From a virus: DNA of 15,691 bases. This document shows, piece after piece, positions 14,069 to 15,691 of the stretch. Position numbers and translations under genes: made by a program. The notes below the pieces were generated by a model. That model was not told the origin of the DNA, did not search any database, and worked only from the letters and a program-made list of their open reading frames with translations. Each line of letters begins with the position of its first letter. Within the stretch, counting starts at the first letter, position 1. The stretch lies in the IMG/VR virus record IMGVR_UViG_3300005077_001203; one strand, written 5' to 3'.

Positions 14069-15454
14069 ATGTCGGACGAAAAAGTTTTCAGGCTCATTGA
14101 TGCGGAGAGCATTCTGCTCTTTGACAAAGACGAGCCGTTCAACGTGCTTCTCAAGGTTGAGAGCATCGACGATGATACGATTCAGTTCGGGCTTGTGATG
14201 CCAATTGATGTTTTCGTGCAAGGTGTGAGCATCGATGGTGTGACGACCGAGCTGAGCGTCAAATCGTATCCATCTCAGATTCCGTCGGTTATCTACAACA
14301 TCAACTTCGAAACAGAAGGAGGTCGTTGGGATGACGATGAACGAGAGATGACTGTTCGTGTCGGTTCGCTCGGTCTTGAACTTACCCTCCGAAAGGGTGA
14401 CTTGGATGACGTTGACGAAGAAGAAAATCCGAAAGAGTTTGAGAAACTCGAGGATGAATACTTTGCCAGCGTCCAGGTCGTGTTCAACAAGGACAACTTC
14501 CAGGGCGACGTCCAGATCGAGGTCGGCCAGGCCTACGAGCGCTCGATCGTCGTGCAGAACAGGGGCGGCTACACCGCGACCATCGGCGACATCTCGCTTC
14601 TGATCGAGTACCTTTTCATATGCGACGGCGACTGCGTCTTCGGCTGCCTCGACAACCGCGAAGCGCGGCTCTGGGTCAACCGCTGCTGCTGGAAGACGAG
14701 CACGCCGTGGATAGACGGCGGCATCCAGGTCATCTCGGGCGTGGTCTCGACCTTCACGCCGCCCGACTCGGCCTGCTACGAGTGCAAGATGTCCGAGATG
14801 GACTACAAGCTCATCAACATGAAGTACTCGTGCCCCCTGTTGAAGCGCGAGGACATCGTGCAGGGCAAGGTGCCCACGGCGCCGACGGTGGCATCCATCG
14901 CCGGTGCTCTGCAGGTGCAGGAAATGCTCAAGGTCATCCATGGCATTCCGGTGAACGGCGGCGCGGCCCTGATGATGTCGGGCGAGACGAACTCGTTCTA
15001 TACCTCGCGCTTCCAGCGTCGCGACGACTGTCTCAGCCACGAGACCTATCCCGAGCCCACGTCGCTGGATCTGGGTCATTTGACGCCGCTGGGCGAGTAC
15101 TTCGCCGCGGTCCGCCGGACCCTGCCCGACGGCGGCGGCGACGAACCGCTGACGCTCCATCTCGAACGTGACGTGCTGCGCGAACTCTTCTGTCCCCAGT
15201 GCGACTACCGCAAGGAAATCTGGCGGCCCCTCACCTCGGTGAGTCTGCACGAGGGCACCTGCCCCACCTGCGACGAAGTCTGTCAGACCGACATCATCCA
15301 CACGGTCACCGAGGCGGATGCCCACCTGCAGGAACAGTCGCTCGCATCGCTCGGGGTACCAAAATACGAGATACTGAAAGTACAATCCCATGACGGGACC
15401 AGGTTCCATCTGCTCGCGGCCGATCGGACGGCGGCCTTCGGGGCCGCACTATGA
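14069..15454 (+). CDS. Composite ORF: an N-terminal P3 paralog domain of about 135 aa, fused in frame to the C-terminal half of a ThiF/MoeB/E1-like adenylyltransferase plus a C-terminal Cys4 extension. Likely a fusion or chimera; see findings.
   Basis: The N-terminus is paralogous to P1 and P2, with AT-ending codons. From about 14466 the codons are almost all GC-ending. The region [52 protein letters not shown] aligns colinearly with E. coli MoeB [80 protein letters not shown] matches the E1 helix GVLxxxxGVIGSLQAxEAIK. The GxGxxG Rossmann half is absent. C-terminal motifs CPQCDY...CPTCDE. Confidence 0.55.
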   Translation: [461 protein letters not shown]

Positions 15455-15494
15455 CGCCGGCCGGCGCGGTCCGGTGGCTTAGAAAGGGACGGAC

Positions 15495-15691
15495 ATGACA
15501 ACGGACGTCGAAAAACGAGGCATCCAGGTGACCTTCCTCGACCAGACGGGGGCCAAGAGCGTCAAGGCCGTCATCTCTGAACGGGTCCAGGTCAAGAAGA
15601 TAATCCCCAACATCATCACCCAGATGAAGCTGCCCGTCACCAGCCCCGACGGCACTCCCATGGGCTACAGCCTGGATCACAAGGAGGGCGG
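15495..15691 (+). CDS. Ubiquitin-like beta-grasp protein; 5' portion only, runs off the window end
   Basis: AAAGGGA upstream. RGIQVTFLDQTGAKSVKAVISERVQVKKIIPNIITQMKLP aligns with ubiquitin [37 protein letters not shown]; the T-G-K position and the Pro after helix 1 are conserved. Lies immediately downstream of the E1-like gene. GC-rich codon style. Confidence 0.55.
   Translation, partial: MTTDVEKRGIQVTFLDQTGAKSVKAVISERVQVKKIIPNIITQMKLPVTSPDGTPMGYSLDHKEG

Follow-up and report, generated by a model that had tools for sequence, protein, structure and literature searches.

An in-frame mosaic at the end of an IMG/VR contig carries a fragment of a ubiquitin-like conjugation operon

The 3' end of the IMG/VR virus record IMGVR_UViG_3300005077_001203, a complete contig of 15,691 nt which is referred to here as the window, carries part of a ubiquitin-like conjugation system. 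Nucleotides 14623-15691 are shown to be a genuine fragment of a chromosomal four-gene operon which encodes an E1, a YukD-type ubiquitin-like protein (Ubl), a UBC-type E2 and a JAB peptidase. The 461-aa open reading frame (ORF) through which this fragment is entered (14069-15454, plus strand) is an in-frame mosaic of three parts, designated (a), (b) and (c), the last of which is the 3' two-thirds of the E1 gene. The truncation of the E1 is most likely not biology, and the encoded protein is predicted to be unable to activate the Ubl under every reading of the junction; it cannot adenylate the Ubl because its nucleotide-binding half is missing. The elements on which the argument rests are as follows:

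13003..13473, plus strand: orphan tandem paralog 1 (156 aa), matched by aa 1-124 of ORF 14069 (BLASTP, E=4e-6)
13568..14035, plus strand: orphan tandem paralog 2 (155 aa), matched by aa 1-105 of ORF 14069 (BLASTP, E=1e-9)
14069..14465, plus strand: segment (a), the first 132 codons of the mosaic and third copy of the orphan tandem paralog family
14466..14622, plus strand: segment (b), a coding-like in-frame spacer of 157 nt
14623..15454, plus strand: segment (c), the 3' two-thirds of the E1, equivalent to residues ~123-394 of its nearest homologue, P0002
15455..15494, plus strand: 40-nt spacer between the E1 and Ubl genes, with the ribosome-binding site GAAAGGGA
15495..15691, plus strand: first 65 codons of the YukD-type Ubl gene, which is broken off by the contig end

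Three segments in one reading frame

The foreign tail lies at the extreme end of the contig. The GC content rises from ~0.48 to ~0.63 near nt 14460 (0.43-0.58 in the body, 0.59-0.74 in the tail), and ORF 14069-15454 crosses this jump uninterrupted. The likelihood change point for GC content at third codon positions (GC3) falls after codon 132, between nts 14465 and 14466, with a log-likelihood ratio of 25.9, and coincides exactly with the coordinate at which an earlier note on this DNA had placed the start of a partial ubiquitin-like module (14466). By segment, GC3 is 0.55 in (a), 0.95-0.98 in (b) and 0.86 in (c), whilst in the body ORFs it does not exceed 0.875 in any 48-codon stretch (mean 0.61, sd 0.10). 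The GC skew, which is positive (0.01-0.30) in all 500-nt intervals of the body (1-14465), is near zero past ~14500 and negative from ~15000, tracking the composition break; this weaker or negative skew is a further sign that the tail is of different origin.

Segment (a) belongs with the two genes immediately upstream, the first of which is part of the AT-richer contig body and not of the Ubl module. A 19-nt element, AGARAAGAAGAAAGGAAAC, which includes a ribosome-binding site, sits upstream of the start codons of both the second and the third tandem paralogs (13548-13566 and 14041-14059, 95% match). No homologue of this ~155-aa family was found among 1.84 billion representative proteins. As the two complete paralogs are 155 and 156 aa long, segment (a) has lost its C-terminal ~25-30 residues, and since its VGSLGLEL aligns with SLGLLGIRI of paralog 2, this string is not the relic of a Rossmann glycine loop.

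Segment (b) bears a coding signature in the frame of the ORF (0.57 and 0.30 GC at first and second codon positions, respectively); the antisense frame with common third codon positions is interrupted by stops, and the segment contains neither a start nor a stop codon of its own. It has no homologue in the 1.84 billion representative proteins, in IMG/VR or in metagenome contigs, and shows no DNA or translated similarity to L001, the contig which encodes P0002, or to the other 238 loci of the operon family that were compared. Its score against a profile hidden Markov model (HMM) of the E1 family (111 members) is -2.5 bits, and 64 of 500 shuffled versions equal or beat its real score against the E1. 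On these comparisons it is not derived from an E1. Frameshifted, inverted or duplicated E1 or operon DNA was considered as its source and rejected, blastn, tblastx and tblastn being silent against all 239 loci, and a supposed resemblance to Ig-like, ASH or DUF1573-type domains was dropped when no Pfam match was found at E<=1.

The homology to E1 starts abruptly at 14623-14635, at both the DNA and the protein level (tblastn and blastn alignments to L001 run from 14635), and none of the high-scoring segment pairs with the 239 loci begins before 14622. Segment (c) starts just ahead of the DVVxGCLDN strand (P0002 residues ~123-127), and so the E1 has been cut inside its Rossmann-type fold. A CATATG at 14617-22, beside the second junction, was discounted as a cloning scar, since the ATG within it belongs to a different frame from that of the E1. 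At the junctions of the three segments there is no tRNA, no convincing direct or inverted repeat, and nothing att-like.

It is very improbable that the whole ORF is instead a divergent full-length E1, in which a GxGxxG loop would have decayed to VGSLGLE, with segment (b) as a diverged beta3-loop region. Such a reading draws on colinear, correctly spaced tblastn and MAFFT alignments of aa 83-185 with E1 residues 25-126, including the pattern G-WD...VG-LG-E, and on the weak resemblance of GDVQIEVG to GDVITDLG. However, aa 1-124, the 'LGL' motif included, are homologous to the upstream paralogs at the E-values given above; the family HMM returns -3.3 bits for aa 1-190 in addition to its negative score for segment (b); the shuffled sequences do as well or better in the proportion already stated; an identity of 81% falls abruptly to background, together with the loss of DNA homology in all 239 loci; and the GC3 break falls within the supposed domain. 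Within the detection limits of these tests the full-length reading is refuted, and a degenerate Rossmann half in aa 83-185 was rejected on the homology to the paralogs, on the scores from the HMM and on the result with shuffled sequences. The earlier note was correct in describing the E1 as truncated, but it missed the in-frame mosaic, whose N-terminus comes from an unrelated paralog family.

An antisense ORF of 559 aa (13730-15409, minus strand) overlaps the E1 region. It does not occupy the frame whose third codon positions coincide with those of the sense ORF and, rather than being a gene, is most readily understood as the stop-poor shadow that GC-rich coding sequence casts on the other strand.

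The retained part of the E1

A search of ORF 14069 with the Pfam ThiF profile (PF00899) gave a match of 69.7 bits, above the gathering score of 28.1, but limited to aa 184-321 and to profile positions 108-236 of 238, which bears out the proposal that the GC-rich tail encodes the second half of a ThiF/MoeB/E1 fold; the full-length E1 of L001 spans profile positions 6-220. The NCBIfam models for MoeB, ThiF and UbaA match aa 184-322, all well under their equivalog cut-offs (e.g., 36.5 against 275). Alignments place the loss in the first ~122-126 residues of the full-length homologues, a region which includes the GxGxxG loop, the Arg-finger region and the Arg/Asp residues that contact ATP: in place of the VVGAGALGNE...SNLxRS of the family E1s, the window ORF shows paralog sequence to which they are unrelated. 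With the 461-aa product as query, 2197 homologues were retrieved at E<=0.001; among the matches listed (120 of the 2197) lengths were 329-480 aa, mostly ~400 aa, and each of the 11 homologues that were aligned is a full-length E1-like protein whose VVGAGALGNE or VVGVGALGNE loop is intact. The half-match to ThiF, these alignments and the HMM scores agree with the earlier suggestion that the E1 is not catalytically complete as encoded, its adenylation half being absent.

The motifs that remain are in good order. The LDN Mg-site Asp is encoded at 14648-14656 (GCLDN, aa 192-196), the CYEC motif (C236/C239) at 14774-14785, a candidate catalytic Cys255 at 14831-14833, and a zinc-ribbon-like CPQC...CPTC pair (C375/C378 and C398/C401) at 15191-15271. 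All of these, together with C321/H324, are invariant across 97 family members and intact in the window, so that both the CYxC motif and the zinc-ribbon-like extension noticed earlier are upheld. Segment (c) is 80.6% identical to P0002 at the amino acid level, retains 88 of the 90 family positions that are conserved at >=95%, and is no more distant from outgroups than is P0002; by these measures it is without sign of decay.

An AlphaFold2 model of the 461-aa ORF, built on a 97-sequence family alignment, has a predicted local distance difference test (pLDDT) score >90 at aa 330-450, which takes in the zinc-ribbon-like region and the C-terminal domain, whilst aa 1-179 are without confident structure. 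The top match of the model in the PDB by Foldseek is UBA3, the catalytic subunit of the NEDD8 E1, with ThiF and MoeB also matched. The C-terminal E1-tail domain of segment (c) is probably UFD-like.

The ubiquitin-like gene

Beyond the 40-nt spacer, which is conserved in L001 and through which the alignment to that contig is continuous, lies the gene that had been proposed to encode a ubiquitin-like beta-grasp protein. The fragment in the window scores 27.8 bits against Pfam YukD (PF08817), barely over the cut-off of 27. Its orthologue in L001 (95 aa) has the same residue at 63 of the 65 window positions and matches YukD at 59.1 bits (E=7.7e-16, profile positions 3-75 of 76), which supports the proposal. 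An alignment of the fragment with ubiquitin itself, which had also been put forward, could not be recovered, BLASTP giving no detectable alignment between the two; the beta-grasp assignment rests on the YukD profile. The C-terminal Gly expected of a conjugated Ubl is present in the L001 orthologue, which ends in ...EIVAG, the window copy having ended at codon 65.

At its 5' end the Ubl gene has a tract of ~33 codons whose DNA is nearly identical in the window (15495-15593), in L001 (9284-9382) and in L216 (6588-6686), a metagenome-assembled genome (MAG). Third-position identity between the window and L001 is 0.83-0.90 over these codons and 0.38 over codons 34-65. The tract is GC-rich even in L001 and L216 (GC3 0.70-0.82, afterwards 0.38-0.47) and is lacking in L031, a locus of the same subclade with 38% GC. 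Across 215 distinct Ubl sequences the synonymous sites vary freely, and thus the conserved 5' tract is specific to one subclade; a family-wide constraint at the RNA level was rejected on the same grounds. The tract looks like the result of recombination or gene conversion between lineages rather than an RNA element.

The parent operon

The contig L001 carries four consecutive genes, encoding a ThiF-type E1 of 394 aa (P0002), a YukD-type Ubl of 95 aa, a UQ_con E2 of 219 aa and a JAB protein of 188 aa, with Pfam E-values of 2e-57 for ThiF, 8e-16 for YukD, 8.7e-14 for UQ_con and 1.4e-8 for JAB. The E2 has the HPN...Cys arrangement (HPNISALGQVC) and the JAB protein the HTHP...S..D motif. In sequence, the full-length E1 lies nearer to the active adenylation domains of eukaryotic UBA7 and UBA1 (3e-30) than it does to MoeB (6e-23). 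All four genes are present in 101 of the loci that were fetched, in one of two orders, Ubl-E2-E1-JAB, which is the commonest, and E1-Ubl-E2-JAB, which is that of the window. The 40-nt spacer, the matches to ThiF and YukD and the L001 operon together substantiate the view that the adjacent E1 and Ubl genes of the window are part of a prokaryotic ubiquitin-like module, and the E2 and JAB partners predicted for it are found in its relatives.

The distribution of the family was followed by scanning for the Ubl peptide QVTFLDQTGAK as a degenerate DNA pattern. The motif was found in at least 120 metagenome contigs and at least 116 species genomes, and all but one of the genome record titles that were read belong to Planctomycetota, including Isosphaeraceae, Pirellulaceae, Mariniblastus, Planctomycetaceae and Singulisphaera acidiphila DSM 18658. 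The operon family is centred on this phylum. The loci closest to the window are those on L001, a metagenome contig, and L216, the MAG, both from genomes of 48-49% GC and with a DNA identity of 71-72%; the E1 and Ubl of the window are real genes from a GC-rich member of the family. Many columns of the Ubl are invariant in the 215 distinct sequences, a degree of conservation close to that of ubiquitin, and the other proteins are far more divergent, with median identities to L001 of 57% for the E1, 57% for the E2 and 36% for the JAB protein (loci L004-L239).

The Pfam domains encoded by the neighbours of the L001 operon are ordinary cellular ones: EF-P, an asparaginase, a radical-SAM enzyme and TPR proteins. 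Given these cellular neighbours, the PADLOC results described below, the lineage-wide spread of the family and its near-invariant Ubl, the operon has more the look of a resident system for protein modification than of a defence island with a patchy distribution. From its domain content we infer that, where the system is intact, the C-terminal Gly of the Ubl would first be adenylated by the E1, that the Ubl would then be handed to the Cys of the HPN-Cys E2 for transfer to targets, and that the JAB peptidase would undo the modification. No experimental characterization of this family was found in a limited search of the literature.

The contig body

The remainder of the window is poor in recognizable genes. 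Every body ORF of any length is on the plus strand, and almost none has a Pfam or PHROG match. The exception (9245-12079, plus strand, 944 aa) is a full-length homologue of the eukaryotic major vault protein (MVP), with matches to MVP_shoulder at 2.7e-21 and to Vault_3 at 1.5e-8. Its relatives include proteins of 37-38% identity in the 462-735 kb 'uncultured phage' genomes LR756500, LR756501 and LR756503, and metagenome contigs binned to Parcubacteria, Melainabacteria and Myxococcota contribute ~130 further homologues, each 800-870 aa long. No synteny with the huge-phage contigs or with the contigs of the closest MVP homologues was found past the MVP gene itself. A known phage was rejected as the identity of the body, there being no megablast match and a lone PHROG match of E=0.0077, to a family of no known function. 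A further ORF (12191-12862, plus strand, 223 aa), for which the database search returned nothing above threshold, contains an internal duplication of ~45 residues, the two copies of which include ...EKVDDGKSRKTFVTVDVNSHGEPDWLSMKFVKSADHDSTWPP and ...REVDDGRSSMFFVHVEVDEDGNPNWLTVKFIKSADGVEKWPP.

Origin of the junctions

For the attachment of the operon fragment to this body, the explanation which we place first, though tentatively, is that the double junction is non-biological, a chimera of assembly or library construction at the contig end, in which the E1 part and the 65 Ubl codons would have been joined in frame, by way of the 157-nt high-GC3 spacer, to 132 codons of an orphan gene. A chimeric join leads as the explanation of the truncation because the ORF is a three-part mosaic with an unrelated N-terminus. 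All three segments are fragments cut within domains, the tail with its wholly unameliorated composition occupies the contig end, and the undecayed state of segment (c) means that the break is either very recent or not real. In the protein collection the 461-aa product (P0001) and two other body proteins were found as singleton clusters from this contig only. The k-mers across the junctions, like any relative of segments (a) and (b) together, are absent from IMG/VR and from the metagenome contigs, and exact-protein look-ups for a source of (a) or (b), or for a second copy of the junction, were empty. Elsewhere the module is a cellular one: none of the phage records encodes segment (c), and the Ubl motif is on no IMG/VR contig (2.9 million viral contigs). 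Several observations nevertheless weigh against a chimera. Each segment is read in its own true frame and on the same strand, for which the chance is ~1/36, or ~1/6 if (b) and (c) were already one unit; two joins inside 157 nt are unlike the product of simple k-mer misassembly; the join has been judged from the assembled contig sequence only; and the body may be that of a large phage, as its MVP-like protein has homologues in huge phages at the identities given above. Genes are captured from their hosts by jumbo phages, and phage and host can be far apart in GC content.

A natural but non-functional rearrangement is possible, if less probable than a chimeric join. A mobile element or phage of 48% GC would have recently acquired, or integrated beside, GC-rich host DNA by illegitimate, template-switching recombination, with segment (b) as a short templated filler and the E1 simply broken, the in-frame fusion being either luck or tolerated because polarity on the downstream Ubl gene is avoided. 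The in-frame joins on one strand and the 157-nt filler are as compatible with replication-based template switching as with an in vitro chimera, and template switching by a polymerase, whether in vivo or in vitro, would be consistent with such a filler; the body resembles a mobile element or phage in its one-strand orphan ORFs and in an MVP-like protein common to huge phages; and the GC-rich tract shared over the first codons of the Ubl gene hints at recombination among operon lineages. However, the junctions lack both an att-like repeat and a tRNA, the E1 and Ubl are on no other phage or viral contig, the junction is without replicate, two events are needed just as for an artefact, and the argument from reading frame serves this explanation no better than it serves the artefact. 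As segment (c) is undecayed and its composition has not been ameliorated, any natural event must have been recent.

That the fusion is functional is unlikely. It would then belong to a phage or mobile element which subverts a host Ubl system, acting as a dominant-negative E1 partner or as a sink for E2 or Ubl: it keeps the part of the E1 in which the dimer interface, crossover-loop Cys, zinc ribbon and E1-tail (probably an E2-binding UFD) would lie, is without ATP binding, and would be expressed along with a copy of the near-invariant Ubl of the host. In its favour are the frame kept over both junctions at the chance already given, a good ribosome-binding site ahead of 14069, C-terminal domains which, with their high pLDDT, may fold independently, the conserved residues of (c), intact at the 88 of 90 positions given above, and the Ubl gene next in line with its native spacer and ribosome-binding site. 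However, the E1 is cut within its Rossmann-type fold and not at a domain boundary, aa 1-179 have no confident AlphaFold2 structure, the composition of the tail is not ameliorated, no homologous fusion was found in 15 billion proteins, there is no evidence of an antiviral role for the Ubl system, and the body is not securely phage, having no significant PHROG match and no IMG/VR match. The more specific proposal, that a large phage or mobile element captured the non-adenylating two-thirds of an E1 together with its Ubl as a dominant-negative or decoy against bacterial Ubl conjugation, is more doubtful again. If it were true, it would be the first viral counter-measure made from a broken E1, and a fusion that was both real and phage-borne would point to the Ubl system as a target of viral interference.

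The window is chiefly a caution: the truncated E1 should not be taken for a new enzyme architecture or a defence gene unless reads support the junction. The operon family is more interesting, and a better target for study, than the fragment in the window.

Comparison with known systems

The antiphage framing that had been given to the fragment is not supported. With the Bil (BilABCD) and CBASS (cyclic-oligonucleotide-based antiphage signalling system) Cap2/Cap3 systems the family shares its general set of parts, which comprises an E1, an E2, a JAB peptidase and, in the case of Bil, a Ubl. However, none of the window ORFs matches PADLOC; the E1 of L001 matches the PADLOC models for E1-E2 (CBASS Cap2-type) and BilD through its Rossmann domain only, at 28-69 bits (29.8 for BilD); the L001 Ubl and E2 have no PADLOC match, either to BilA or BilB or to any other model; and the matches of its JAB protein are generic. 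In Cap2 the E1 and E2 are fused, whereas here they are separate proteins, and no CD-NTase domain is among the listed Pfam matches of the L001 genes. The Bub system is likewise a bacterial E1/E2/Ubl operon, and the E1 domain of BubCD is a distant relative of the present one (1e-10, Rossmann part only). Bub proceeds by oxyester intermediates, its E2 and its peptidase-E1 fusion both being without a catalytic Cys, and has a Ser-His protease (PMC11601596); here, in contrast, the E2 has HPN...Cys, the E1 keeps its conserved Cys and the peptidase is a JAB metalloprotease. Judged by these matches, the family is not a member of Bil, Bub or CBASS.

The sulfur-carrier adenylyltransferases MoeB and ThiF resemble the window E1 in the fold of the half that it retains, in the LDN Mg-site and in the zinc motif CxxC. 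They differ in their partners, which are MoaD or ThiS and sulfur-transfer genes rather than a YukD-type Ubl with an E2 and a JAB peptidase, and the present E1 has in addition a zinc ribbon and a C-terminal domain. YukD (PF08817) is linked to the Ubl by a profile match above the gathering score, which assigns the beta-grasp fold, and YukD is not known to be conjugated. Unlike the YukD proteins of Firmicute and Actinobacterial ESX/type VII loci, the present Ubl is flanked by an E1 and an E2 and has Gly as its last residue; YukD has been located in ESAT-6 secretion clusters (PMC1779556), whereas the neighbours of the Ubl in L001 are the E1, E2 and JAB genes and not those of an ESX/type VII locus.

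The closest resemblance is to the eukaryote-like operons. Operons of E1, Ubl, E2 and JAB/Rpn11 genes, with or without a RING E3, were predicted by Iyer, Burroughs and Aravind (PMC1779556) and are cited in PMC3417536, and a eukaryote-like system has been reconstituted from 'Candidatus Caldiarchaeum subterraneum' (PMC5654768). The present family departs from these in several respects. Its Ubl matches the YukD profile and not ubiquitin, and has one exposed Gly at its end (..VAG) and no pro-peptide; none of the four genes in the L001 operon was seen to encode a RING E3; the centre of the family lies in Planctomycetota and not in Archaea; and the window itself has only a 5'-truncated E1 and a 3'-truncated Ubl. 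What it has in common with them is a separate E1, Ubl, UQ_con-type E2 and JAMM/JAB peptidase in one operon, as in L001, and a C-terminal domain behind the adenylation domain of the E1, the Caldiarchaeum E1 having a C-terminal UBL domain (PMC5654768). The fragment at the end of the window thus belongs to a known kind, the eukaryote-like prokaryotic ubiquitin operon, here with a YukD-type Ubl.

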